From the NCBI GenBank assembly GCA_963823665.1, contig CAWGMQ010000010.1:1408001-1472000 (forward strand): a stretch of DNA of 64,000 nucleotides, written 5' to 3'. The translations under genes and the position numbers were made by a program. The first letter of the stretch is position 1, and each line of letters starts with the position of its first letter. The stretch comes from an uncultured Planctomycetota bacterium. Its GTDB lineage: Bacteria; Planctomycetota; Planctomycetia; Isosphaerales; Isosphaeraceae. Below the pieces are notes generated by a model, which saw only the letters and a list, made by a program, of their open reading frames with translations, ran no database searches and was not told the DNA's origin. Of the stretch, positions 31,511 to 61,629 are shown in pieces.

Positions 31511-32536
31511 ATGCGGGCCAAGCCCGTCTTGCGTCCCTGCCGAAGATTCATGCGGTTCAGCGTGCGGGGGCTGATCGTCCTTGTGCTCTTGATCGGCGCC
31601 TGGGTCGGCTCGATCGTGCGAAGTGCCCGCATCCAGCGCGAGGCGGTGGCAGCGATTCAGAAGGAGGGTAATGGCGTCGCATACAACTGGGAGTGGAGCA
31701 ATGGGAGTTTCGTCGTACCGCGCGGACGACCCTGGGTTCCACGCCGGCTGGTCGATCTTCTGGGGATCGACTACTTCGGCCACGTCACTTCTGTCTGGCT
31801 TCGAGATACCACCGATTTGGCGATTGCGAACGTCTCGCGTCTCGATCGCCTCGAGCAACTGAAAATCAATACGCTTGCCAGGACCGGCGCCCGGGCCAAC
31901 ATCGACGACTATCTGGCACAGCTAAGCGGCCTGACTGAGCTCACCGAGCTCGATCTCGGATTCGCGGCGGTCACCGATGCGGGGCTCGCTCATCTGAAAG
32001 GCATGACCAAGCTGTCGACGCTCCAGCTCCGGAGTGCCGCAATTACGGATGCTGGGTTGGCGCATCTGGAGGGTCTGACCAACCTCAGGGCGCTCGCTGT
32101 TTTTGACACACGAATCACGGGCGCCGGGCTCGTTCATCTGAAAGGGTTGAGCAAGCTTTCGGGCCTCTTTCTCAGAAGCTCGCAAATCGACGGCAACGGG
32201 CTCGAGCACCTGAGCGGGCTGGCCGGCCTCACGTCGCTTAGCCTCATTGGATCGCCGGTGACCGATGCGGGGTTAGCGCATTGCAAGGACCTGACCAGGC
32301 TTCGTGACTTCAGCCTCGATGGCGCGCAGATCTCTGACGCCGGAGTTGCGAATTTGAGCGGGCTGACGAGCATCGCCATGCTCTCGCTCTCCGGCACGAA
32401 GGTCTCCGACACAGGATTGGTGCACCTGAAGGGGTTGACCAAGCTGACCAGCCTCAACCTCGGCGGCACTCGAGTTACTGACGCTGGAGTGAAAGAACTA
32501 CAGAAAGCTTTGCTGCGCCTGGAGATCTCCCGCTGA
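31511..32536 (+). CDS. Leucine-rich repeat protein 2
   Basis: RFSVRGL leader + TM; repeats of L..LT.L..L.L....VTDAGLAH. Confidence 0.92.
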   Translation: MRAKPVLRPCRRFMRFSVRGLIVLVLLIGAWVGSIVRSARIQREAVAAIQKEGNGVAYNWEWSNGSFVVPRGRPWVPRRLVDLLGIDYFGHVTSVWLRDTTDLAIANVSRLDRLEQLKINTLARTGARANIDDYLAQLSGLTELTELDLGFAAVTDAGLAHLKGMTKLSTLQLRSAAITDAGLAHLEGLTNLRALAVFDTRITGAGLVHLKGLSKLSGLFLRSSQIDGNGLEHLSGLAGLTSLSLIGSPVTDAGLAHCKDLTRLRDFSLDGAQISDAGVANLSGLTSIAMLSLSGTKVSDTGLVHLKGLTKLTSLNLGGTRVTDAGVKELQKALLRLEISR

Positions 32537-32689
32537 TCTGCGGCCCGTGCAAACGGCATCGAATCGTCCCTGTTGCAGGCGCGAGTTGAATCGCAACCGA
32601 TGGAATGAAACGCGCGAGTACTTGGTATGATCTGAGCCGGCGGAGCGAATCGCCTTCGAAGGGCCCCGGATCCCGGGAGAATTTCGACG

Positions 32690-34000
32690 ATGCCGGCCAA
32701 ATTCGGCCCACTTCCCTGGCGAAGATTCTTGCGATTCAGCGTGCTTGGGCTGATCGTCGTTTTGCTGATCGGTGGATGGCTTGGGTGGTTCGTGCGAAGC
32801 GCGCGTATTCAGCGCGAGGCGGTGGCTGCGATCCGCAAGGACGGCAATTTCGTCAAATACAACTGGGAGTGGAAGAATGGGAGTGTCGTTGGCCCGCCTG
32901 GAAATTCCCGAGCACTACGCCGCCTGGTCGATCTTCTGGGGATCGACTATTTCGGCCATGTCACGTCCGTCTGGCTCCGAGATACCACCCCTACCGCGAT
33001 CGCGCACGTCGCGCGTCTCGAACTTCTCGAGCAACTCCGCCTCGATGGTTCTCCAAAGTTCGGTGATCGGTCCAACATCGACGATTATCTGGCGCAGTTA
33101 AGCGGCCTGACTGAGCTCACCGAGCTCGGCCTTGGCCGCTTGCGCATCACCGACGCCGGAGTCGCGCATCTGAAAAACATGACGAAGATGTCGAAGCTCC
33201 ACCTCTACCAAGCCGAACTTACCGATGGTGGGCTGGCGCATCTGCGGGGGATGACCGAACTCACAGAACTCGACCTCGGCCAGACGCACGTAACCGATGC
33301 AGGGCTAGCGCGCCTGAAACACTTGACGAAGCTGTCGAAGCTGCGCCTCCGCGGCGACAAGCTTACCGATGCAGGACTCGCGCAACTGCACGGCATGACT
33401 GAACTCACGGAGCTCGACCTTGGCGTCGCGCCGGTTACCGATGAAGGGCTAGCCCATCTGAAAGACATGACCAAGCTGTCGTCGCTGCACGTCTGGAGTG
33501 ACAAAATTACCGATGAAGGGCTGGCGCATCTGGAGGATCTGACCAACCTCTCGACTCTGGTTCTGAACGACACGCGAGTCACCGACGCAGGGCTCGCACA
33601 TCTGAAAGGGCTGACCAAGCTTTCGGCGCTCGTCCTCGAAGGTTCGCAAATCGACGGCACTGGGCTTGAGCACCTCGGCGGGATGGCCGGCCTAGGACTA
33701 CTCAGCCTCAACATATCGCCGGTGACCGATGCGGGCTTGGCGCATTGCAAGGGGCTAACCAGTCTCCGCGACTTGAGCCTGGACTACACGCAGATCTCCG
33801 ACGCTGGACTTGCGCACTTGAGCGGGCTGACGAACCTCGACATGCTCTCCCTCTGGGACACTAAAATCACCGACGCCGGATTGGTTCATTTGAAAGGGCT
33901 GACCAAGCTGACCAGCCTCAACCTCTACGGCACTCAGGTCACCGACGCTGGAGTGAAAGAACTACAGCAAGCTTTGCCGCGCCTGGATATCTCGCGCTGA
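32690..34000 (+). CDS. Leucine-rich repeat protein 3
   Basis: Close paralog of LRR 2 with about four extra repeats. Confidence 0.92.
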   Translation: MPAKFGPLPWRRFLRFSVLGLIVVLLIGGWLGWFVRSARIQREAVAAIRKDGNFVKYNWEWKNGSVVGPPGNSRALRRLVDLLGIDYFGHVTSVWLRDTTPTAIAHVARLELLEQLRLDGSPKFGDRSNIDDYLAQLSGLTELTELGLGRLRITDAGVAHLKNMTKMSKLHLYQAELTDGGLAHLRGMTELTELDLGQTHVTDAGLARLKHLTKLSKLRLRGDKLTDAGLAQLHGMTELTELDLGVAPVTDEGLAHLKDMTKLSSLHVWSDKITDEGLAHLEDLTNLSTLVLNDTRVTDAGLAHLKGLTKLSALVLEGSQIDGTGLEHLGGMAGLGLLSLNISPVTDAGLAHCKGLTSLRDLSLDYTQISDAGLAHLSGLTNLDMLSLWDTKITDAGLVHLKGLTKLTSLNLYGTQVTDAGVKELQQALPRLDISR

Positions 34001-34087
34001 TCTACGGCCCGTGCAATCGGCATGGAATCCTCCCTGCTGTATCGCGCGAGTGGAGTCGCAATCGATTGAATGAAGCGCGCGCGTAAT

Positions 34088-34096
34088 TGGTATAAT
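34088..34096 (+). promoter_or_regulatory. Extended -10 promoter element (paralogous copy TGGTATGAT at 32623-32631)
   Basis: TGGTATAAT in a duplicated intergenic spacer upstream of an LRR gene. Confidence 0.55.
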
Positions 34097-34153
34097 TTGA
34101 TCCGCGGAGCGAATCGCCGCCGAAGAGTGTCGAATCCCAGAGAGTGTCGACCA

Positions 34154-35128
34154 ATGTCGGCCAAATTCGGCCCACGTCCCTGGCGAAGATTCCTGCGCTT
34201 CAACGTGCGGGGATTGGTCGTTCTCGTGCTCGTCATTGGCGGGTGGCTTGGCTGGCTCGTTCGAAGCGCGCACATCCAGCGCGACGCGGTGGCGGCGATC
34301 ACGAAAGCCGGGGGAATTGTGTCTTATGACTGGAACTCCGGCAGGGGGACGTTGAAGCCGGCACGGAAACCTTGGGCGCCGTGCTGGCTCGTGGATCTTA
34401 TTGGAGTCGACTATTTCGGTCACGTCACCGAAGTCACGCTTTATGAGAAGGGAACCGATGCCGTGATGCGACACGTCGCGTGGCTTTCGCAGGTCGAGCG
34501 ATTGATTCTCGATCAATCACCAGTCAGCCGCGACGTCGCGCTGAACGGGCTCACCTTCCTCGAGGTCAAGGACACACGTGTTACCGACGCCGGGCTGGCG
34601 CATCTCAAGGGGCTGACCAAGCTCTCCTACCTGATCCTCGACGACACTCCTATCACCGACATCGGGCTGGCGCATTTGAAGGATCTGAGCAATCTCTCCG
34701 TCCTTGACCTTGGAAACACGAATGTCACCGATGCCGGGCTGATGCATCTGAAGGGGTTGACGAAGCTGTCCCATCTCGACCTTCGCGGCACCGTAGTAAC
34801 CGATGCCGGGCTGGCGCATCTCGCGGGGCTGACCACGCTCGAAGAGCTGCTTCTCGGCGGGAAATCGTTCACCGACGCCGGACTCGTGCATTTGAGAGGA
34901 TTGACCAACCTCAGCACGCTCGACCTCGACGGCGCTGTGATCACCGACGCCGGGCTCGCACATTTAAAGGGGTTAAGCAAGCTCGCCGACCTAGACCTCA
35001 GCTTCACGCAGGTCACCGATGAGGGGCTCAAGCACCTGAAAGGGTTAACCAAGCTCTCTGGCCTCGAGGTTGACGGCACTGCTGTCACGGAGTCTGGAAC
35101 GAAGGAGCTCAGGGAAGCGCTGCCTTGA
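34154..35128 (+). CDS. Leucine-rich repeat protein 4
   Basis: RFNVRGL leader; TDAGLAHLKGL repeats. Confidence 0.92.
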   Translation: MSAKFGPRPWRRFLRFNVRGLVVLVLVIGGWLGWLVRSAHIQRDAVAAITKAGGIVSYDWNSGRGTLKPARKPWAPCWLVDLIGVDYFGHVTEVTLYEKGTDAVMRHVAWLSQVERLILDQSPVSRDVALNGLTFLEVKDTRVTDAGLAHLKGLTKLSYLILDDTPITDIGLAHLKDLSNLSVLDLGNTNVTDAGLMHLKGLTKLSHLDLRGTVVTDAGLAHLAGLTTLEELLLGGKSFTDAGLVHLRGLTNLSTLDLDGAVITDAGLAHLKGLSKLADLDLSFTQVTDEGLKHLKGLTKLSGLEVDGTAVTESGTKELREALP

Positions 35129-38949: not shown

Positions 38950-40329
38950 TCACAACAAAGTGCCGCGGAGGAGCACTATGGCGATGCTGAAGTAGATAAT
39001 CAGCCCGGTGACGTCGACGAGAGTCGCCACGAACGGCGCGGAGGAGGTTGCCGGGTCGAATCCAAGTCGCCGCAGCAGGAATGGAAGCATCGAGCCGGTC
39101 AGGGTTCCCCAGACGACGACACCGATGAGCGAGAAGCTGACCGTCATACCGACCAGGATCCAGTGTGGTCCGTAGATGTTCGAGAACGCGTTCCAGGCGG
39201 CGATCCGGACGAAACCGATCGAGCCCAGGATACATCCGAGCAACACGCCTGCGAGCAGCTCGCGGCGCATCACGCGCCACCAGTCCTTGAGCCCGACTTC
39301 GCCGAGCGCCAGGGCGCGGATGATCAAGGTGGCGGCTTGCGAGCCGGAGTTGCCACCGCTCGAGATGATCAGCGGCACGAAAAGCGCGAGCACGACGGCG
39401 CGGGCGATCTGCTTCTCGAAGAAGCCCATGGCCGTCGCGGTGAGCATCTCGCCCACGAACAGGATCACGAGCCAGCTTGCCCGCTTGCGGATCATCGCCG
39501 GCAGGGGCGTGCTCATGTAGGGCTCGTCGAGCGCTTCCAGGCCGCCGAAGCGCTGCAAGTCGCGGGTGGCTTCCTGTTCGGCGACGTCGAGCACGTCGTC
39601 GAGCGTGACGATCCCTGCCATCCGTCCCTGGGTGTCCACCACCGGCAGCGCGGTCCTGTCGTACTTGCCGAAGACTTCCACGGCCTTCTTGCGGCCGTCG
39701 GTGACGCAGAGACTCACGAACTCGTTGTCCATCAGATCCGAGACATGGGCGTGCAGGGGCGCGAGCAGAATCTCGCGAATCCGCAGGTCATCGACGAGCT
39801 TGTTGTGCTCGTCCGTGATGTAGATCACATTCAAGGTCTCACGGTCGCGGCCGTGGGCGCGGATGTGGTCGAGCACGTGCCGGATGGTCCATTCCCGGCG
39901 CACGACCAGGTAGTCGGGAGTCATCAGCCTGCCCACGCTGTCCTCGCGATATTCGAGCAAAGCCCGGGCGATCGCGCGCTCACTCTGATCGAGCAGGTTG
40001 AGGAATCGCTCGGCCTGTTCCGAAGGCATCTCGGCGAGGAGGGCCGTCCGGTCGTCGGGAGCCATCTCGTTCAAGACGAATCGGGACTCGTCTTCCGAGA
40101 AGGTGGTCAAGACGGTCTGCTGGGTGTCCAGATCCAGATAGGCAATGGTCTCTGCCGCTCGTTTGGGCTGGACGAGCCGCAGCACCTGAACACGCTCGGG
40201 GCCCGACAGCGCATCGGCGAGCTCGGCAAGGTCGGCGGGCAGCCAGCGGTTGAGTGCCTCGCGGAGCGTGTTGTCGTCGCCGGTGGCGAGCAGCTCGCGA
40301 ATCGATGGCAGCGCGAGCTTTCCCAGCAT
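38950..40329 (-). CDS. mgtE: Magnesium transporter MgtE
   Basis: CBS pair; PLIISSGGNSGSQ; DPATSSAPFVATLVDVTG. Confidence 0.96.
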   Translation of the reverse strand: MLGKLALPSIRELLATGDDNTLREALNRWLPADLAELADALSGPERVQVLRLVQPKRAAETIAYLDLDTQQTVLTTFSEDESRFVLNEMAPDDRTALLAEMPSEQAERFLNLLDQSERAIARALLEYREDSVGRLMTPDYLVVRREWTIRHVLDHIRAHGRDRETLNVIYITDEHNKLVDDLRIREILLAPLHAHVSDLMDNEFVSLCVTDGRKKAVEVFGKYDRTALPVVDTQGRMAGIVTLDDVLDVAEQEATRDLQRFGGLEALDEPYMSTPLPAMIRKRASWLVILFVGEMLTATAMGFFEKQIARAVVLALFVPLIISSGGNSGSQAATLIIRALALGEVGLKDWWRVMRRELLAGVLLGCILGSIGFVRIAAWNAFSNIYGPHWILVGMTVSFSLIGVVVWGTLTGSMLPFLLRRLGFDPATSSAPFVATLVDVTGLIIYFSIAIVLLRGTLL

Positions 40330-50154: not shown

Positions 50155-50545
50155 GTCTTGCCCTTTCCCAACGTTTGACCTGGTGGGGAGTTTGGACAAG
50201 ATATCGCGAGCGGAACGAGCCGTCTCGCCGTTTCCGGCCGTGCAATTGCGATTCGGGCAATCTGGAGCCAGAGGCATTCTGGAGCCAGACACCCAACCTC
50301 TGGAGTTGGTTCCGGGGCACCCGTTGCAGACATCCACCGCTCAGGGGGCACCCGAGCTGTTCGCAGCAGCGGACGCGTCCAAACGCTGGCGACCTACCCG
50401 AGCGCACACGATTGCTGACCGTGCGTCTTACAGCGCGTGCTGTGCGCAACGTCGGCCGCGAGGCGCCCTGCGAACGCGGGACGCGAACCGGTGTCAGTCA
50501 CGTGTGCAGGTTTCGCCCGGGACCCACTCCGGTTGGTGGGTGTCT

Positions 50546-51278
50546 TTGCGTCAGGAAAAGCTCGAGAAAGGAGGAAGTGCCTCGAAACACAGAAACCTTT
50601 CATCGCGACCCTGCGGGTTAACGAATCCCGCCCGGCAGAGCCTGGCCGGCAGCCGGAAGCAAGTCTTGCGTGGGGAGGGGTGACCCTCACTGCGAAGCGT
50701 AGACAGCGAGTCTCCATGCCATGCTATCGAGCCCCGAAATACTCATCGTGGGAGCCTCCGTTGTAGACACAAGCGGGGGCCGTGTCGACACGCCGCAATG
50801 GCCTGGCGTGTTCGGTCCTGCCGGGGTCCAAGAACATGGCGCAGGGACGCGAGGGTTGCTCGGGAACCTGAGAGCCCCATCCGTCTCCACTGACATTTCC
50901 GGCTCGGGAACCGGAATACCAACTCCCCGGCCCACGACCCCGCGTCGGGTCGCTGGGAGCGAACAAGACGCAAGGGTGGTATCGCCAAACGAAGGCAACG
51001 AAGTGCGGCGAAATGGGCGGACGGGAGTCGGAGTGCTCCGTAGTAGCAGTGAAGCGGGGGAATGGGCCCTCCCAGACCCTGTGGAGCGAAGGGGGTACCG
51101 TGTCGCGGACTGGAAGCCGGAACCACGCCGAGGGCATTGGACCTCAGAGCGCGTCACCGCGAGGCGACCAGATCGTGAGAGGGACAGCGACGCCGCGACA
51201 TGACGAGCCGGATGCCTTAATTGGGCACGTCCGGATCAGTGGGAGCCCTGGCGGAGCGATCCGCCAGGGCGACCCGGC
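50546..51278 (+). mobile_element. ORF-less group II intron, copy 1 (733 nt)
   Basis: Domain V at 51205-51237 (AGC triad, AC bulge); domain VI 11-bp stem with GCGA loop and bulged A 51272; EBS1 AGACAC (50765-50770) complementary to exon end GTGTCT (50540-50545). Confidence 0.92.
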
Positions 51279-51302
51279 GGTTTCCCCGGTTGGTGGGTGT
51301 CT

Positions 51303-52035
51303 TTGCGTCAGGAAAAGCTCGAGAAAGGAGGAGGTGCCTCGAAACACAGAAACCTTTCATCGCGACCCTGCGGGTTAACGAATCCCGCCCGGCAGAGCCT
51401 GGCCGGCAGCCGGAAGCAAGTCTTGCGTGGGGAGGGGTGACCCTCACTGCGAAGCGTAGACAGCGAGTCTCCATGCCATGCTATCGAGCCCCGAAATACT
51501 CATCGTGGGAGCCTCCGTTGTAGACACAAGCGGGGGCCGTGTCGACACGCCGCAATGGCCTGGCGTGTTCGGTCCTGCCGGGGTCCAAGAACATGGCGCA
51601 GGGACGCGAGGGTTGCTCGGGAACCTGAGAGCCCCATCCGTCTCCACTGACATTTCCGGCTCGGGAACCGGAATACCAACTCCCCGGCCCACGACCCCGC
51701 GTCGGGTCGCTGGGAGCGAACAAGACGCAAGGGTGGTATCGCCAAACGAAGGCAACGAAGTGCGGCGAAATGGGCGGACGGGAGTCGGAGTGCTCCGTAG
51801 TAGCAGTGAAGCGGGGGAATGGGCCCTCCCAGACCCTGTGGAGCGAAGGGGGTACCGTGTCGCGGACTGGAAGCCGGAACCACGCCGAGGGCATTGGACC
51901 TCAGAGCGCGTCACCGCGAGGCGACCAGATCGTGAGAGGGACAGCGACGCCGCGACATGACGAGCCGGATGCCTTAATTGGGCACGTCCGGATCAGTGGG
52001 AGCCCTGGCGGAGCGATCCGCCAGGGCGACCCGGC
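51303..52035 (+). mobile_element. ORF-less group II intron, copy 2 (733 nt)
   Basis: Direct repeat of copy 1 at a 757-bp period; only difference noticed is A50576 vs G51333. Confidence 0.92.
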
Positions 52036-52247
52036 GGTTTCCCCCCCGCGTTCTTTGCGGTAATGTGTACTGATCTCACGATAATGTTCTCACTTAGAGT
52101 GCTTGTGGCAAGTGGAAGCCAAATCGGGTCGTCAGCCGCTTGCCGGCGCCGGCATCCGAGGACGATATGCAGCTTCGGCCGGATTGTGTCGCGGACTGCA
52201 TCGGCTTGCTTGGCGTGAGCCAACGATAGGACCCTGGCGAAAGGATT

Positions 52248-55200
52248 CTACTTCGACGTCTTGCCCAGAAGTTCGTCGAGATGCGGAGTGACCGGCTCGT
52301 TTAACGGCAGGAACCAGATTGACGGCTTCTTCTGCGCACGGTATTGCCGGTCGAGAGATTCGAGCACTTCCTTGATCGTCTTGCCAGGGCCGAGGACCGC
52401 ATCGACGCGTGGCGCAATTTGTTCAGTCAGTGCCACAAACCAGGACGAGTTCTTCGCCTTCGCACTGTAGTGCTGGTCGAGCTTGTCGAGGACCTCTTTC
52501 GCGGGGATGGCCGGCCCGAGGAGTTGGTCCAGCAAGGGAGCGGCCCTTTGGTCGAGGCCGAGTTTAGTTCAGCGCCTCCCGAGCTTGATGGCGTGCGCGA
52601 GCCGCCTCGATCGCGGCCGGTGCGTCGATTGCGGGTTGGGGTGGTGGTATCCTTCCATCCTTCAATGCCGCGAGTAGCTCTGCCGACTGCGGACGGAGGG
52701 CGGGATCGATTGCCCCTACTTTCAGAGCGCTGTCGTACGCGGCGAGGGAGTCCTCGGCAGACTTTTGAGCCGCTGCCTGCGCGCCCAGACGCCACAGGCA
52801 TAGTGCGAGATGATAGCGAACTCGACCGTTCCACGATGCGTCCTCGGGCTCTGCCCGCTCGAGTTCCGGCATCAGCGCCGAGATCTCGTTGCAGGCTTTC
52901 TCCGCCAATCCGAGCTCGCGCAGCGCAGCCGCCCGGAGAATGCGAGTTCGAAGCATGGCAAAGGGCTTCACAGATTGGTCGGCCATGGGGTCTAGCGCGG
53001 CCTCGCAGAGCACGACTGAGTCGGCATGAGCACCCTCGTTGAAGGCGGCTAGGCCCCGTGCAGTCAGTTCATCCCCGTTTGGCCGAAGCAGGTTGTCGAG
53101 ATGCTGGGCGATTGGTTCATCCGGCCCGAGGAGATAGACAGCCGGCTTGCCCATTTCCTTGTAATGGCGATCCAGGAATGACAGCACGTCCGCGACTGAT
53201 CTGGTCGGGCCGATGAGCCTTTCCACCTCGGGAACGATCGGCGCCAGCTTGTCCGTCACCTCCGTCGTTGATTTGATCCGCCGGGAGATCTCGGGCTCGG
53301 CCAGCTTCAGCGCGGCGAGCAGTTGGCGGTAGTTATCGAGATTTTGACGCAGATTCGGATGCTCATGGCCCGTCGATCGTTGGAATCGCGATAAGATGCG
53401 AACGGCGCGTGCCATAAGTGGCTCGGCCGCCTCGATGCGGTTAGTGGAGAAAAGAAGCAACGCCTGATTGTTCAGGTCTCTTGCGACGGCGGGGTGATCG
53501 GGGCCGTACGTCCGTTCGTCGATGTCCATCGCCCGCCGATATAGCGGCTCGGCCTCCGACATTCGATTCGTCGCGCGGAGCAGCTCCGCCATGTTGTTGA
53601 GACTTTTTGCCACATCCGCGCTGTCGGGGCCGTACGAGCTCTGATCGATCGCCAGCGCCCGCCGCATCAGTGGCTCGGCCACCACCGTGCGGTTCGTGTC
53701 GTGGAGCAACCCCGCCAGGTTGCTGAGGTCGATCGCGACGTTGGGGTGGCGTGGGCCGTACGACCTTTCGTCGATCGCCAGCGCTCGCCGATATAGCGGC
53801 TCGGCGTCCGCGATGCGGTTCGTATCGTGGAGCAGCGTCGCCAGGTTATTGAGGCAATTCGCGACGAAAGGGTGGTCGGGCCCGTACGAATGCTCGTCGA
53901 TCGCAAGCGCCCGACGACAGAGTGGCTCGGCCTCCGCCATGCGATTCGTTGCCTGGAGCATCGCCGCCAGGTTATTGAGGCGATTCGCGACGAGAGGATG
54001 GTCGGACCCGTACGACTGCTCGTCGATCGCCAGCGCCCGGCGATAGAGCGGCTCGGCCTCCACCACGCGGTTCGTTGCCTGGAACATCGCCGCCAGGTTA
54101 TTGAGGCAATTCGCGACGAGGGGATGGCCGGGCCCGGTCGACGGCTCGGCGATCGCTAGCGCCCGGCGAAACAGCGGCTCGGCGTGCGCGGTACGGCCGG
54201 TCGCCTCGAGCAGAAGCGCCAGGTTGTTTAGGTCGGCCGCGAATTCAGCTTGGTCCGGGCCACGCGACCGCTCGTTAATCGCCAGCGCCCGACGGAATAG
54301 CGGCTCGGCCTCTGCGATGCGGTTGGTGTTACGGAGCAACTCCGCCAGGTTGTTGAGGTTAGTCGCGACGTTTGCATGGTCAGGGCCGTACGACCGCTCG
54401 TTAATCGCCAGCGCCCGACGGAATAGCGGCTCGGCCTCCGCGATGCGGTTGGTGTTGCGGAGCAACTCCGCCAGGTTGTTGGATCCCATCGCTTCCTCAC
54501 CGGGTTGCGCAGCCAGTTTCAACGCCTCGCGGAGATGGGGTTCCGCGTCGCTGTACCTCGCGAGTTCCAATAAGAGAACACCCAAATCGATACGCGAATC
54601 GAACCAGCTAGGATTCTCGCGAACAATCAGGTCACGAATTCTGAGTGCTTCGTCCCACCTCAGACTGCTTTCGTAAAGGTCAGCTTGAAGCACCGTCGGG
54701 CGATAGGCCTCGCGCAAGCGTTGGTCGGCACGATCGCGGAAAGACTTCGCCGCGCCGATTTTCCTTTCGATGGTCGGCTGTTTTTGTTCGAGGTACTTGA
54801 TTGCCGCATCGACACCCTCGATCGGTTTGTCGAGGATGTTGGCGGCTTCGATGAAAATCGGATCCGGATCTCCGGCCAAACCTTCGCGAATCGTCGCGAC
54901 GAGATCCTGTACGGCTTCCAAGGTCTGATCGCGGCGTTTCTCGATCTCGTCGCGCTTTCGCCAATCGTCAGGGGACCGCGCTTGCGCGGCGGCGATTTCT
55001 TCGACGGCCCGTCTGCGAATGTGGCTCTGCATCTTGCCGACCAGAACGTCAGGATCCGCGTCCTGTTTTCCCAGTGCTTCCAGGTTTTTGTTGACACTCG
55101 TGATTTGTGTGGTGAATCCTTGGCCGAGATTGAGCGTTACGGCCGCAACCGCCACCAGACTTGCCACGCCGATCGCGCCGAGGGCGACTCGCGTTCGTGA

Positions 55201-56043
55201 AGGAGGAGTCACGCTCGCCGGCCGCAGCCCAATCTCATTGCGCCGGAGTTCCCGCTGGAATCCACGGCGATCGGCGCCAGTGCGTTTCGTCAACAGCCCC
55301 CTGCAATAGCCCTTTAGAAGCTTGTATGCGGCTTCGGCTTGGGTCGGGTCCACGAGCACGGCAGTTCGGAGCTTGTCCATCGCCGCGTTGTCGGCATCAC
55401 CGTCGGTGCCGTCGGCACTGACATCAAGCGTATCGATTCTCATCATAGAGAAGAAATCGCGGAGATCCCTCGGCGAGGGCTCAGTCCCGTGAGTTCGGCG
55501 CCAGAATAAGTGAACATGGGAGAGGAGTATCTCAGACGCGGCTTTCTCCTCCTTGCTATTGGCGGCGTCCGTCAACACCGTACAGCGTGCATCGCCTTGG
55601 AACCGATCAAGTACGGCTGGTAGTTGCGAACAGGCCCACATAGGCGCCAGACCATCGGTCACCAGGACGAGACGATCGCGCTCCTGATCTAGCGGACGTT
55701 CCCACGGGTGATTTCCTCCCTTATGGAGTCGCTGTGACAGAAAGTGACGAACGAATTGCCCCACGGCTGATCCGAGCGCTGAATCCTCGGCGGCAGAAAG
55801 CCTTAGACCCCGCTTTGCTTGCAAATATACAGCGCCGCCGGCTGATGTGATGAGCAAGACGTCGTCGACGGGCAGTCCTGTCTCGCATCGAACTTCGGTG
55901 TAATAGACCGTTGGCTCCAACCCCCAACGCGGCGTCACAGCTTGTTCCGCGAGTACGCCGACCGCTGCCCATGCTGCGATGCTGTCCTGGAAGGAAAACC
56001 CTCCGGCAGCAGCAGCTCCGCCTCCTGTGCCAACGGGTAACAT
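52248..56043 (-). CDS. PD-(D/E)XK nuclease-like domain + TM helix + TPR array + C-terminal repeats (frameshift at ~52565)
   Basis: GGFSFQ...E..CET...DD...YLQAKR; hydrophobic VALGAIGVASLVAVAAVTL; about nine 42-aa LNNLA..AEAEPLYRRALAIDE..YGPDHP repeats; ORF 52248..52535 continues it. Confidence 0.8.
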
Positions 56044-56890
56044 GCCGGCGCCCTGGTCTGATTGAGTTCGCGAACATCCCCACGAACGGGAAAAGCTCGA
56101 TTATACCAGGGCGCCGCGTGCGCCACGTGGCCATTTACTCCGGCAGCGGTTTGGGCACCGTCCGCATGCAACGGCTGAGCGGCGGTTTGTTCCTCGTATC
56201 AAAGCTCACGCGACTCGCGCTCATCGCTCGGCTTTAGGCCCGCGCGCTCGAGAAGTTCGGGGCGACGTTGGCGTTCTTGAGAACTGAGGCTCGCCACGAA
56301 AGCGGCGAGGTGGTCGTCGGTCGTCTGGGCGTCGGTTTCATTGCAAACAGGATTACAACGAGTGAACGGCCTCGCCGTTAATTGGGACGGGCTCTCCTTT
56401 GCGATCCATCGACCTTTCACTCCTAAACAAAACATCGTTCCTCGCATTTATCAGTCATGATTATGTTCGACATCAACCTGATTCGGTTTTCTGCAATTCT
56501 TCTGCACACATTGCCCATGTCAGCCCAATGCGACTACAATGCGAGCGAACACCGACGGCTATCGTGGACCTCGGCAAAATCCCTGAAATCAACGTCAAAT
56601 CAACATCAGCCCAACGTCAGACAGATGGCAGACGCGCCGGTCCCAAAATCCCGATAGATGAACGACCTCCAGATCATTGGCCGAGCTCGCCGCATCGGCG
56701 CGGTCCTCAACCGCGAATCTATTTCTCCTCTTCCGGCCGACCGTCGGGTTCCGTCCCAGGAGCTCGCCAGCCGGCCTCGGCCGAATCGGCGGTTGGCGAC
56801 GTGGCCGGGATCGGGACTTCAAGCGAGGAGTGGCGGGATCTGGTACGCTGAAGTGTGCTCAACGACTGGCGCACCAAATAGCGAGCAATT

Positions 56891-57720
56891 ATGCTAATCC
56901 GAGTCGGCTGCGAACTTCGTTTCGTCTTTCCAGAGCCCACGGCCATAATCCTGATGCTAAGCCTCCATCCGTTACGCGCGCCACGATTCGTCAGCACGAG
57001 CAGTTGCAGGTTGAACCGCTGGTTCCGTTATCTGCGTATTTTGACCAATACGGCAACCGCTGCCACCGCGCGTTCGTTCCGTCAGGCCTCGTGACGTTTA
57101 GAAATAGCGCAGTCGTCGATGACTGCGGGCTGCCGGATCTGCAGGTCCTCAATGCCCCACAAAACAATGTCCAGGACCTGCCCCAGGAGGTCCTGCAATT
57201 TCTCCTCGGCAGCCGTTATTGCGAGGTGGACAGCGAGCTGAACCAATTCGCTTGGTCCCAATTCTCACAGACCCAGGCGGGTTGGCCGCGGGTTCAAGCA
57301 GTGTGCGATTTCGTGCACCAGCATATTCGGTTCGACTACCAGAAAGCCCGGTCCAGTCGAACGGCGTGGGACGCCTATCATGAGCGCACGGGTGTATGCC
57401 GCGATTTCACGCACCTCGCGATCACCTTGTGCCGCTGCTTGAATGTGCCCGCGCGCTATTGCACCGGCTATCTGGGCGATATCGGCTTGCCACCGACGCC
57501 AAGCCCGATGGATTTCAGCGCGTGGTTCGAGGCATTCCTGGGCGGGCAATGGTACGCGTTTGACGCGCGTCACAACGTTCCCCGCATCGGTCGCGTGCTC
57601 ATGGCCCGCGGTCGTGATGCCGCCGATGTTGCCCTGACGACGACGTTTGGAATCAATCAGCTCCAGTCGCTCACCGTCTGGACCGACGAAATTGGTGTCG
57701 GATCGACCGCAGAACCGTAG
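56891..57720 (+). CDS. Transglutaminase-like family protein (frameshift at ~56970)
   Basis: MLIRVGCEL start; SRYCE; GVCRDFTHL; ARYCTGYLGDIG; DFSAWFE; GRDAADV. Confidence 0.9.
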
Positions 57721-57776
57721 CATTGTTGCTATGGCACTCGATTCTTCGGGCCGGAGCCGTGCGAGGGGATGCTCTT

Positions 57777-58328
57777 ATGGAGTCGTGGTACTTTGCTTAT
57801 GGCAGCAATCTCTGGATGGACCAAATGATCGAGCGCACGGACTCGATCGGCCATCCCGAGAACGGTCCCAGGATCGCTCGATTGGCGAATCATCGGCTCG
57901 TGTTTCAACGGCTGGACGCCGCAGACGAAGCCTTCGCCAACATTTTATGTCCGGGAGACGGCGTGCTTGGCGTGGTCTATCGCTGTAGCCAGACGGACCT
58001 CGAGCGGTTGGACCACTACGAAGGCGGGTATGAGCGCCGGTCGATTACCGTAACCGACCAGCATGGCGAAGTCTTGGCAGCCGTTGCGTATGTCCTGATC
58101 CCTGCGCAGGCAGCAATCACCGGCAGACCCACCGCCGCGTACCTGGAACGAATCGTTAGCGGCGCGCGGCAGCATGGATTTCCCGAGGAGTACATTCGCA
58201 ACATCGCCGCCATCGCGGATTCGGCAATTCTTCGAGGCGATCACTCCGAGCAATTCGATTGCTGTTCTAACGAGGAGTTCCAGACACCCACTAATTCCCA
58301 GGTCGGAGGTGGGAATCGAGGAGGTTGA
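57777..58328 (+). CDS. Gamma-glutamylcyclotransferase family protein
   Basis: YFAYGSNL; GVVY; LDHYEG. Confidence 0.9.
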   Translation: MESWYFAYGSNLWMDQMIERTDSIGHPENGPRIARLANHRLVFQRLDAADEAFANILCPGDGVLGVVYRCSQTDLERLDHYEGGYERRSITVTDQHGEVLAAVAYVLIPAQAAITGRPTAAYLERIVSGARQHGFPEEYIRNIAAIADSAILRGDHSEQFDCCSNEEFQTPTNSQVGGGNRGG

Positions 58329-58449
58329 CTCGACCGATTCAGGCTGAACCGCCCGGGCATGCTGTCGGCAGGTGGTCGCCTCAATGCGCAGATTATGTCG
58401 ACGGTTGCGCACAGGGCGAATGAGGCCGGTGGCATCTTGATCGCAAAAA

Positions 58450-58544
58450 GTGGGTGTCTTTGCGTCACGGGACGCGAACCGGTGTCAGTCACGTGAGCAG
58501 GTTTCGCCCGGGACCCACTCCGGTTGGTGGGTGTCCGGTTTCCC
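58450..58544 (+). repeat. Intron-free copy of the intron flank, preceded by an exon/intron junction stump
   Basis: 58468-58535 matches 50477-50544 with one mismatch, then C-GGTTTCCC; 58450-58467 is identical to 50536-50553. Confidence 0.9.
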
Positions 58545-58554
58545 GTATGACCTC

Positions 58555-59290
58555 TCAGCGCGCCGGAGGTAGTTTGCTCGGCGAGAGGCGATACACTGTT
58601 GCGAATTGTTGACCACCCCGTTCGGTGACTTGATCGAGCAGGTACAACTTACCATCCTGTCCGAGGGCCATCCCCTGGATAATATCAGCTCGGCCACGGT
58701 CGAAGTTGGGCAGGTAATAGGACGTTGCCTTGCCGCTGACCGTGATCCGGCCGATCTCGAGCTCCTTCGAAGAATCGTTCGTGAACCAGAGCGATCCGTC
58801 GTCCCAACCCTGATCAATCAAGAATGGCCCGGAATTCGCCGCCGGGATCTTGTAACGCGTGACGGCGCCAGCGGTTGACACCTGGAAGACTTCGTTCTGC
58901 CCACTCAAGGTTTGGCCGTACACGATGAGGGTGCCGTTGGGCCCGTTTGCGACGCTCGGCTCAGAAAGTTCAGGGACTGGGAAATCCGTCACAACGCCGC
59001 TCGGTGACATCCGGCCGAAAACGGACTCGTTGCCCGAGTCGCCCACGCTCTCGGCGAACCAGAGATTTCCGTCGGCTCCGGCCGCGAGCGAGTCGATTGT
59101 AGGCCAATACGCGATAGTCGGCCCGGAGCTGACGGAGGAGATGGGGAACAGCTTGACAGCCCCAGCGGTCGTCATCCGTCCGATGTAGTCTGAGTTCTGA
59201 CCGTGGGAACCGAAGACCGTATAGCCGAACCAGAAGTCGCCGTCGGGCCCACTGACGATTGAGGTGTCCTGAGCGCCTCCTTCCAGGGAA
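58555..59290 (-). pseudogene. Virginiamycin-B-lyase (Vgb)-like beta-propeller, 5'-truncated
   Basis: GPDGDFWF, GADGNLWFAE, IGRMT..G repeats; no credible start, and the frame begins inside a GACACCCA inverted repeat. Confidence 0.7.
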
Positions 59291-59837
59291 TCCAAGACAC
59301 CCACTCTCCGCCGTGGAATCAGTGGGTGTCCGGGAATCTCTGGCAGCCCTAGCAACCCTCTGGCAACCCCTGGCTTCCCCGGGGGGTCGATGTCTGGCTT
59401 CCCAGAGGGTGGATGTCTGGCTTCCCGGCTTCCCTTAGCGCGTTTGGATGCTCATTTTTACAGATCTTCGCGTACGACCAGCACAACTGGCCGGCGGTTG
59501 ATGAAAACAGGCGAAATTCTGGCGATTTCTGGCAAATGGCTCGACGCTTTTGTAGATCATATTGGTAAAGAGCGGCGTTGCGTTGCCGTCGAACGGGGGC
59601 GAGAACGCAAGGCTGGATAGGAAAGCCTTCATCGGTTTGGCGTGCCCTGGAGGATTTGCTGAAGAAACGAAGAAGCCGTGTTTTCTGTACGTGGGACGGT
59701 TGTCTTCGATATTGATCGGACGATTCGGCGTATTGCCTTGGTATGGGACGAGAACGGCGATTGGGGGTGAGACGCTTTCTCGTGATTTCGTCCCATTTCG
59801 TCCCATCAGAGCTCGATGATCCGTTTGGTCGGACCAA

Positions 59838-59955
59838 GGGCGGAGGGTGGAGGACGGAGGACGGAGGAAAGGCCGAGACAAAGATCAGGGCGGCGGGACG
59901 GAGGGCGGAGGACGGAGGAAAGGCGGAGACAAACATCAGGGCGGAGGGCGGAGGA
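59838..59955. repeat. Heptamer (GG(A/G)CGGA) tandem repeats arranged in ~51-bp units
   Basis: Two units ending GAAAGGC.GAGACAAA.ATCAGG; same heptamer at 61263-61290. Confidence 0.8.
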
Positions 59956-61629
59956 GACTTGCTCGAAATGGACGAATTCCACATCTATTGCGCAAATAAA
60001 CTGGGGCGTTTGTAGATCATTTGGGTAGAGGCCGAGGGTACCGTCATTAGAATACGAGTACGAGTACGAGCAGGAGGGGACGTGTCGGGCCTACGACTTC
60101 GAGATCGACCTTCGTTGCGTCGGCGGTAAAGATGTCGCCACGATGCCCGGCCGACCAGCAAGGCGACGTCCTCCGCTATTGCCACCGTTTCATCGTTTCA
60201 AAACGCGTTGAACGTGCTCATCTGAATGAGAATCTTTAACGCGAGACTGATGGTTAATCGCCTATCGCGGTTGAATTTGTGTTTTTACGCAGAGATTTAC
60301 AAGTGTGATTGAGAGATAGCCAACGCCCAAAACCCGCGCATAGTATAAGAGGAGGCCGGCTGCGGGCATGGTGGTCGAGTCACCGTTGGTCTGCGCGGCG
60401 ATCCGCCTGGCTTCCCCCCCCACCGCCGCCTGCGGCGGCACCTCGCCGACGGTGGGCTACTCGATCACGATCGCCGACGCCCGAGTTGGCGCGATCGGCA
60501 CCCACGTCTCTGGAACCGAGAATGACTGCTTCGTTTGCTCGATCGCGTGCTCGAGGACCTCAGCCCGGCCTGGCGATGCCCGTGCAGTGGGAAAAACGCG
60601 GCCGCACTGCGCCTGTAAATAGGGATCGGTGCTCGACGAAATTCCACCAAATCTTGAGCTGTGCCGGGCGTGGGACGGGTCTGGACCCCGGTACGGGTGA
60701 GTTTTCTCCTCGCGGGCCGGGCAAACCTGGAGAGGGGCTCGTGGCGTTATCCTCTTTGGCGGTCAGCATTTCCGTACGGCTGCGAGGCTTCCCGGCCAGC
60801 CATCGGACGGGGTTCAAGACGGCAACCAAAATGAGACCTTTTTCAGGGTGATTCGTCCCATTTCGTCTCATTTTGTCTCATTCATTTCTACTTATTTGAA
60901 GCCTGCGAGACATTTCTCGAGAGCCCATCCGCGGAACGCAACAGGGCACTGCGATCTTATGTGGGGAATGCCCGAAACAAGAACGACGAGGGCCACGTAC
61001 CGCCTGCTGGCGCTGCCAATTTACCCCGGTGTACGGATGCTTGATGGGCTCCGGTACTTGCCACTTTTTGCCATTTTTCGAGTCGGCGAACGGTTGTCAC
61101 GCGCGGAGCACGTTATCTGGAACTTCAGTTTGTTCCAGGCATAAGAGGCTGATGGATCGACCGAAACCTTTTTCACATGTGGACTTGCGGAGGGCGGACG
61201 AGGTGGGCTCTGGGGGTGGAGCGCTGCGCCGTCTGCGGGGTGGCGATTCGGGGCCGGAATCAGGACGGAGGGCGGAGGGCGGAGGACGAAGCGCGGAGCG
61301 AAAAGAGCCGGAAGCCGGAAAGCGGGGATCGGAAGAGACCTTCATCGTGGTATCACTCTGGTATCATTTCGCACCAGGGGGCGAGAGGCTGGTGGATCGA
61401 CCGAAGACATGTGCGCATTTGCGTTTGCGGAGGGCGGCCGAACCGGATTCGGGGGGCTGTGCCAGGTCGCGGGCCGCACCTTGGCGATTTTGGGCCAAAG
61501 CCGGGCGATTGCGGGCGAGGTTTCGGCTTCGAATTCGGCCCTTGGCTCGGCATCTGGACCGCGTTAGGGCGTTCCCGTAGTCCTTGTGGGGTAAGGATGC
61601 GCGACGAATAAACAAAACGAAAGCGGGGA

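Follow-up and report, generated by a model that had tools for sequence, protein, structure and literature searches.

RmInt2, a group II intron of Sinorhizobium meliloti, targets the inverted repeats of the insertion sequence (IS) ISRm17 (PMC4615759), and TIRtrons with their TIRYT transposases have been published (Di Nocera et al. 2013, PMC3733652; Quentin et al., 10.1101/279083; PMC5581495). Here we analyze a 64,000-nt stretch of DNA from an uncultured planctomycete of the Isosphaeraceae (the window; positions 1408001-1472000 of contig C10, CAWGMQ010000010.1, in the 16.5-Mb source assembly, G000), in which two tandem group II intron copies lie among repeats of a short motif, TGGGTGTCY. This motif is very probably the terminal inverted repeat (TIR) of predicted HUH/Y1 elements and of their non-coding derivatives, in which the intron sits at one fixed point, likely reached by retrohoming through RNA-DNA base pairing. 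Judged from sequence, the intron is likely a genetic parasite that survives through insertion into the ends of a second one, and the arrangement would form a three-tier chain of parasites in large planctomycete genomes: a Y1 transposase, non-coding end units, and introns with or without a reverse transcriptase (RT) gene residing in those ends.

Like RmInt2, the intron family is an endonuclease-less group II intron that takes the inverted repeats of mobile elements as targets; ISRm17 offers two sites per element on opposite strands, and head-to-tail copies of RmInt2 are reported (PMC4615759). RmInt2, however, is a class D intron with an IS as target (PMC4615759), whereas the host here is a HUH/Y1 element with hundreds of amplified non-coding ends. 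Further differences from RmInt2 are the UUGCG...GC ends, the lack of an open reading frame (ORF) in most copies, the 24-nt duplicated target between the copies of the window tandem, and a pair of sister introns that occupy opposite strands of a single repeat.

The host element resembles published TIRtrons in having a Y1 gene, with a Y---NP motif, between TIRs that also form dispersed singles, dimers and clusters (PMC3733652; 10.1101/279083). According to the available text of Quentin et al. (10.1101/279083), published TIRYTs are mostly of subclass 2.1 with a GGGGWSAS consensus, from which the tip described here departs; the 410-aa protein of the element fits, by written description only, subclass 2.3 (long, with core insertions, multi-copy), for which that text reports no flanking structure. 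Defined DNA ends are now available for such a long, multi-copy Y1 transposase group, so that the role of a RAYT-like protein becomes directly testable. In their means of spread, through an abundant and mostly intergenic repeated site, the introns recall IIC and IIC-attC introns (PMC7923331; PMC7306698), and the sites here also lie in co-oriented arrays between gene modules. IIC introns read a stem-loop and have a 3-4 bp exon-binding site 1 (EBS1) and no EBS2 (PMC7923331; PMC7306698), in contrast to the 6-bp EBS1 and the EBS2 found here. With IIE/IIF introns the family shares a small, IIB-like ribozyme in which EBS1 and EBS2 are present and the domain V (DV) loop is enlarged (Nagy et al. 2013, PMC3753933); the published consensus ends of that group are GUGYG...AY as against UUGCG...GC.

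The strategy is therefore known from RmInt2 and TIRtrons are known as well; the targeting of TIRtron ends by introns is a real and well-supported variation on these. The word "intron" is absent from PMC3733652, and "group II intron" from 10.1101/279083. No introns homing into TIRtron ends were found in the literature searched, whose scope excluded subscription papers and supplements, and intron-database papers could hold a case; one text found lists RAYT, without more, among genes occasionally near RTs.

The motif and its introns in the window

An earlier note on this DNA had described the motif as a short dispersed repeat concentrated in a 9-kb region, and every motif position that it listed is present; its reconstituted 19-nt target is matched at 18 of 19 positions at 58526-58544 and at 17 of 19 at 59408-59426. 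Within 50280-59430, TGG[GA]TGTCY occurs ten times (two of these being intron junctions), against a mean of 0.24 and a maximum of 4 in 200 dinucleotide shuffles of the region, and three times in the remaining ~55 kb. The density above random expectation and the concentration are thus borne out, but the family is not confined there: exact TGGGTGTCYG occurs 233 times in G000, against 34 for the reversed control pattern. The earlier note reported no sighting of the motif elsewhere in the window, where three weak matches lie at 39629, 40121 and 44213; with one mismatch allowed, the excess over the entire window is modest (7 matches versus 2.04 expected, 7 being reached in 1 of 100 shuffles). The repeat is indeed dispersed, but the motifs are tips of larger units, here with 30-nt inverted arms at 50287-50316 and 50516-50545 that are 80% complementary. 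Across the genome the motif is arranged in outward-facing pairs and in tandem-duplicated tips, which are common in the family. The features of this region are as follows.

50256..50316, minus strand: left tip of a non-autonomous unit, its arm being 50287-50316; the tip is duplicated in tandem over 17 nt (50256-50289), and the minus-strand intron target is empty
50353..50545, plus strand: right (downstream) end of the Y1 transposase element, gene-less, ending in the intron-holding TIR; 81% identity over 156 nt
50546..51278, plus strand: ORF-less group II intron copy 1, 733 nt, UUGCG start and GC end (Rfam RF02005, 138 bits)
Parts of copy 1 in the fold, plus strand: EBS2 50744-50749, EBS1 50765-50770, DV ~51205-51237, domain VI (DVI) to 51278
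51279..51302, plus strand: 24-nt spacer made of the 3' tail of the first TIR and the 5' portion of its tandem duplicate; site of the second insertion
51303..52035, plus strand: ORF-less group II intron copy 2, differing by 1 nt from copy 1
52036..52044, plus strand: 3' tail of the second TIR (3' exon)
56792..58271, plus strand: gene module, transglutaminase-like and GGCT-like, 97% identical to a segment of the congeneric genome G001
58280..58544, no strand assigned: second non-autonomous unit, with left tip 58280-58294 and an intron-free right end, 58468-58544, almost identical to 50477-50545
58450..58467, plus strand: internal TIR with the intron's first 8 nt directly after it, a likely stub of a lost insertion
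58555..59280, minus strand: fragment of a Vgb-lyase-like beta-propeller gene that lacks its 5' part, being cut off at the repeat cluster
59280..59346, no strand assigned: mini TIR dimer with 26-nt arms and a 15-nt spacer, alone among the tested units in giving a significant hairpin (z -3.1); homologues on contig C3
59369..59434, plus strand: degenerate TIR tips, tandem-duplicated

Segment 50353-50507 aligns with the right end of an intact element on C3 (81% identity over 156 nt, E 6e-36), and the right end as a whole (50353-50545) also aligned with four element ends and has ~25 homologous places in the genome. Together with the inverted arms, this alignment places the window introns in the right TIR of a gene-less derivative of the element. 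The description of such landing sites as harmless has to be qualified, for the repeat overlaps or truncates genes here: the 58280 motif falls within the 3' end of a GGCT-like ORF, and the Vgb-like gene is cut at 59280.

Copy boundaries were set by comparing genome copies. Group II features are displayed in the covariance match to domain I (RF02005) and, in the fold, in a DV with an AGC triad and a DVI with a bulged A seven nt from the 3' end. Domain IV (DIV) of the window copies is ~100 nt of non-coding sequence with no RT/maturase. Among the best 40 of 85 BLAST candidates scored in G000, we recovered at least 20 copies, at least 14 of them near-identical, ORF-less and mutually 97-100% identical and at least 6 RT-bearing, with diverged relatives besides. 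The RT of the sister copies is a 450-aa protein (TIGR04416, 326 bits), seen in two of the six as a single 450-aa match without a stop; a Pfam scan of it returned RVT_1 only, with no endonuclease match.

All 21 recovered intron starts, belonging to 20 introns and to one 20-nt 5' stub on C3, come after TGGGTGTCY, as the genome scan of insertion flanks proposed in the earlier note would have it. A whole-genome pattern count of motif plus intron start gave 26 sites, these 21 and five with just 8 nt of intron (including window position 58452); the four-A start variant lies at motif sites in 13 of 13 genome matches, and the three-A variant was counted among the same best 40 of 85 candidates. The 3' flanks, resolved at 15 of the 21 sites, are all tip tails, with C at +7 in 15 and T at +5 in 14.

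Stub sites, where only 8 or 20 nt from the start of the intron follow the TIR, occur at 58450-58467 of the window and at positions 130169, 131451, 198247, 200624 and 1268730 of C3; the earlier note had listed the window motif (58450-58459) with no mention of the intron sequence behind it. Such 5' stubs are unexpected if reverse transcription proceeds from the 3' end, which suggests later deletions, and the 8-nt cases may be a natural tip variant.

A predicted Y1 transposase element bounded by the motif

The element that carries the motif at its ends was reached by tblastn starting from a weak match. It is ~1.8 kb long and encodes a 410-aa predicted HUH/Y1 transposase with 67 genome matches, many of them fragments. 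Among distinct copies of at least 80% identity within 30 fetched loci, overlapping loci having been merged by hand, the motif lies upstream in 8 of the 12 copies that retain the N-terminus and downstream in 12 of the 18 that retain the C-terminus; seven copies have it on either side. The tips are inverted and stand at fixed distances from the gene, ~220-230 nt upstream and 300-350 nt downstream, and one element copy (L018) holds an RT-bearing intron inside its left TIR. Read inward, the tip is GGGAWNNCAGACACCCA, which departs from the GGGGWSAS consensus, itself present in some TIRs only. As in TIRtrons, the Y1 gene lies between TIRs, and the TIRs are dispersed as singles, dimers and clusters. 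The motif family also forms the ends of a 142-bp non-coding unit, found in at least 40 places each in G000 and G001, which has only the tip in common with the Y1 element.

The 410-aa protein carries HLH at positions 77-79 and YVDLNP at 190-195, and H77, H79, Y190 and N194 are invariant across 53 family sequences. Its match to NF047646 (E 3e-8, 33.6 bits) lies below the cut-off of 80. Its Atlas neighbours are Y1_Tnp clusters at 0.97, and many of its homologues carry the JGI name RayT. Searches of PDB sequences with the transposase returned nothing significant, and hits to solved transposases in a profile search, over the HuH stretch, were at E 0.6 only. The protein is predicted to be a TnpA-Y1 class 2 (RAYT/TIRYT)-like transposase. 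A search for a tyrosine transposase associated with repetitive extragenic palindromes (REPs) and flanked by the same motif had been suggested earlier, and it led to this RAYT-like protein with the motif inverted on its flanks. The proposal that the intron homes into a REP-like element holds insofar as the target is a mobile-element repeat, which is, however, a TIR of the TIRtron type rather than a GTAG-footed REP hairpin; no GTAG or CGTC foot of a canonical REP/REPIN (a 20-40 bp hairpin) was seen in the motif contexts listed.

None of the 11 Y1 genes of the genome that match PF01797, considered as candidates for the cognate transposase, has motif tips on both sides. Some of these genes have other TIR families on their flanks, and one diverged intron (L024) sits in a site resembling one such TIR. 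At another locus (L056, C8 at 1768.5 kb), the Y1 gene of another TIR family is broken by the 142-bp unit, and at a third (L061, C10 at 187.5-188.7 kb) a distant Y1 homologue is immediately preceded by a CRISPR-like array of evenly spaced repeats.

A clear motif excess over the control pattern was found in 4 of 61 genomes, G000 itself (233/34), G001 (166/31), G030 (138/25) and G033 (213/25). G001 and G033 carry several transposase homologues at 70-85% with the same tips. Related inverted tips accompany distant homologues in G009, G058, G057 and G022, and none were found at several other loci tested.

These data bear on a first alternative, in which the repeat is an independent REP-like family, or one akin to miniature inverted-repeat transposable elements (MITEs), that merely accumulates near Y1 genes and that the intron targets, this transposase not being its mobilizer. 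The 142-bp unit, with its tip as the sole link to the Y1 element, and the different TIRs of other Y1 families in the genome agree with this alternative. What speaks against it are the 7 copies with an inverted tip on each flank at a fixed distance, the inverted tips that surround homologues from other genera, and the fact that motif expansion follows the copy number of close transposase homologues in three of the four motif-rich genomes; we consider it improbable.

Target pairing and the spread of the intron

Target recognition looks like ordinary base pairing rather than the IIC hairpin mode. EBS1 (AGACAC) is the complement of target positions -6 to -1, and EBS2 (CATCGT) that of positions -13 to -8. 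At least 5 of 6 nt pair with EBS2 at 19 of 21 occupied sites, whereas of the 170 empty sites in the fetched regions 93 reach this level (Fisher p 0.0017). By BLAST, 12 of the 21 starts lie in ends of the 142-bp unit, one in a Y1 left TIR and one in the right end of the gene-less derivative in the window; the other seven fall below the assignment threshold, some being tandem tips that adjoin assigned units, including that of the second window copy.

A second alternative is passive spread, in which the transposase, or recombination among the repeats, carries whole units with their introns to new places and few true homing events are needed. Clustering of the copies (6 in 30 kb on C11 and 3 in 12 kb on C6), the 97-100% identity of the ORF-less copies and the single-nucleotide difference between the tandem copies of the window would all accord with it. 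The flanks at the same register differ, however, comprising both ends of the 142-bp unit, the left and right ends of the Y1 element and other units; a tandem on C3 joins an ORF-less copy to an RT-bearing one; and EBS2 pairing is enriched at occupied sites. Passive spread is unlikely as a sole route, and on the whole we find it very improbable.

The notion that the intron reads a DNA hairpin of the repeat, as IIC introns do, is favored by the near-palindromic tip and by the good fold of the 59280-59346 dimer (z -3.1), yet four of six repeat pieces fold no better than shuffles, with one borderline, and complementarity is full at EBS1 and EBS2 and covaries across lineages, which leaves it next to no probability. 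The IIC analogy of the earlier note accordingly stands for the strategy and not for the recognition.

Related introns provide further evidence on pairing. In G030, introns with the same EBS1 have all three of their resolved junctions at GGGTGTCT, and in G000 and G001 a sister intron with EBS1 TGTCTG occupies the opposite strand of the same repeat. We collected the best 80 of 497 related RT loci, among which the closest relatives are Planctomycetota, many of them Isosphaeraceae. EBS1 pairs with the intron-binding site IBS1 in 49 of the 55 loci whose 5' end was resolved, as against a mean of 25 and a maximum of 34 after shuffling, and the count includes three loci with a mis-located EBS window; the covariation of EBS1 with the target in related genomes anticipated by the earlier note is thus observed. 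In the 40 of 80 loci with both ends resolved, whose kinship makes them non-independent, a match to the published TIRtron consensus lies across the junction in 12 of the 27 introns of UUGCG type and in none of the 13 of GUGCG type, the control 18-mers giving 346 of 7966 (4.3%), and GGGGWSAS is present at many targets of related introns. At two loci (L133 and L153) a TIR pair encloses a Y1 gene and the intron lies within one of its arms, and two others (L129 and L149) adjoin a Y1 gene. A FastTree phylogeny of 81 RT sequences, midpoint-rooted, groups the RT of the window intron family with introns targeting CTGACA/C, the same core cut four bases further on; the tree is weak at deep nodes, and for this reason we claim no single TIR-targeting clade. 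The shifted registers and opposite strands on one repeat offer a natural series for EBS retargeting.

Several observations weigh against the reading of the motif as a transposase TIR into which the intron homes. Movement, splicing and cleavage were not observed. The 142-bp unit whose ends make up 12 of the 21 occupied sites has a body that is not matched to the Y1 element, so that unit and transposase are linked through the shared tip only. The 410-aa query had no match in Pfam, PF01797 being matched weakly in just 8 of 53 family members. A lagging-strand preference judged from GC skew, at 9 of 10 regions without masking and 8 of 10 with it, speaks neither for nor against the reading. G030 has an expanded motif but merely a 74% transposase fragment (the genome is 73% complete), and G009 has many homologues at 46-55% and a related tip with no exact-motif excess. 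Finally, 15 of the 27 UUGCG-type relatives fail a strict TIR test, and at least two intron subclades lie on unrelated targets.

The mechanism that we propose for homing into transposase TIRs is inferred from established group II intron and HUH biology and builds on the observed site identity, pairing and element anatomy. The transposase would multiply its ends as dimers, tandem tips and MITE-like units and so maintain a steady supply of targets, and the intron ribonucleoprotein would reverse-splice into the TIR at the IBS1 junction. Since the RT is without an endonuclease domain, a host primer would be needed, probably at replication forks. ORF-less copies, including both in the window, may owe their movement to RT supplied in trans from RT-bearing copies. 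Two insertions into a tandem-duplicated tip would account for the window tandem; the 24-nt spacer equals one duplicated tip and, with the mixed tandem on C3, favors separate insertions.

Window copy 51303-52035 is 95% identical to an RT-bearing copy (L037) over the first 547 nt and 89% at the 3' end, and its short DIV aligns with that of an ORF-less opposite-strand sister (L048; 72% overall), which indicates that it did not arise by simple ORF deletion from the RT-bearing copy. One read run, which may be related to the source, contains the ORF-less intron with 1 difference over 723 nt beside the flank of another genome copy, so that the intron is not an assembly artefact. No read contigs bridged the window tandem, and the RNA contigs covering the intron family showed no splice or circle joint. 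Several TIR-targeting introns are twintrons, holding another group II intron close to the boundary between DV and DVI (for example L037:3060-6240, at 913-916 kb of C6, and L014); this inner intron encodes a 627-aa RT whose C-terminal region is HNH-like, and 7 copies of that RT were matched.

Module exchange and further features of the window

The 142-bp units form co-oriented arrays in both G000 and G001. Thirteen segments of at least 85% identity are common to the fetched arrays of the two genomes, and a repeat is found no more than 25 nt away from 9 of their 25 ends, where 5% would be expected, in a count restricted to selected regions in which one end was counted twice, one at a locus edge was dropped and masking can inflate the figure. 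The modules of one G001 array are scattered over three G000 arrays. In the window, the 1.48-kb module 56792-58271 is 97% identical to G001, as against 75-86% for the adjacent collinear core; its end is 2 nt away from a motif repeat here, and in G001 it lies beside another TIR family, at a distance of 13 nt.

It is possible, though doubtful, that TIR units serve as exchange points of an integron-like system run by the HUH/Y1 transposase, with the UUGCG...GC intron clade as the counterpart of IIC-attC introns; co-oriented 142-bp units would then separate gene-sized modules (toxin-antitoxin-like pairs, small enzymes) swapped between arrays and species. Recombination between repeats or plain insertion hot spots account for the module pattern equally well. 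If module shuffling were transposase-driven, it would constitute a gene-cassette system without an integrase (no search aimed at an integrase or attC was made).

The transglutaminase-like gene of the module (56891-57720) has a start out of frame with its body, while the G001 copy is a single 276-aa ORF; the frame break is either real or an assembly error. The Vgb-like fragment matches PF24684 at below cut-off length (model positions 55-231 of 290) and has a 408-aa homologue in G033. Multi-copy non-coding repeats unrelated to the TIR motif lie at 56485-56651 and 59435-60450 and are matched at 72-91% by many sequences of G000 and by some of G030 and G033. On the minus strand, 52564-56043 is a 1159-aa ORF of 126-nt repeats, which we take to be tetratricopeptide-like; its N-terminal 281 aa had no match in a Pfam search. 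Three adjacent genes at 31900-35070 are likewise made of repeats, of 72 nt, presumably leucine-rich-repeat-like.

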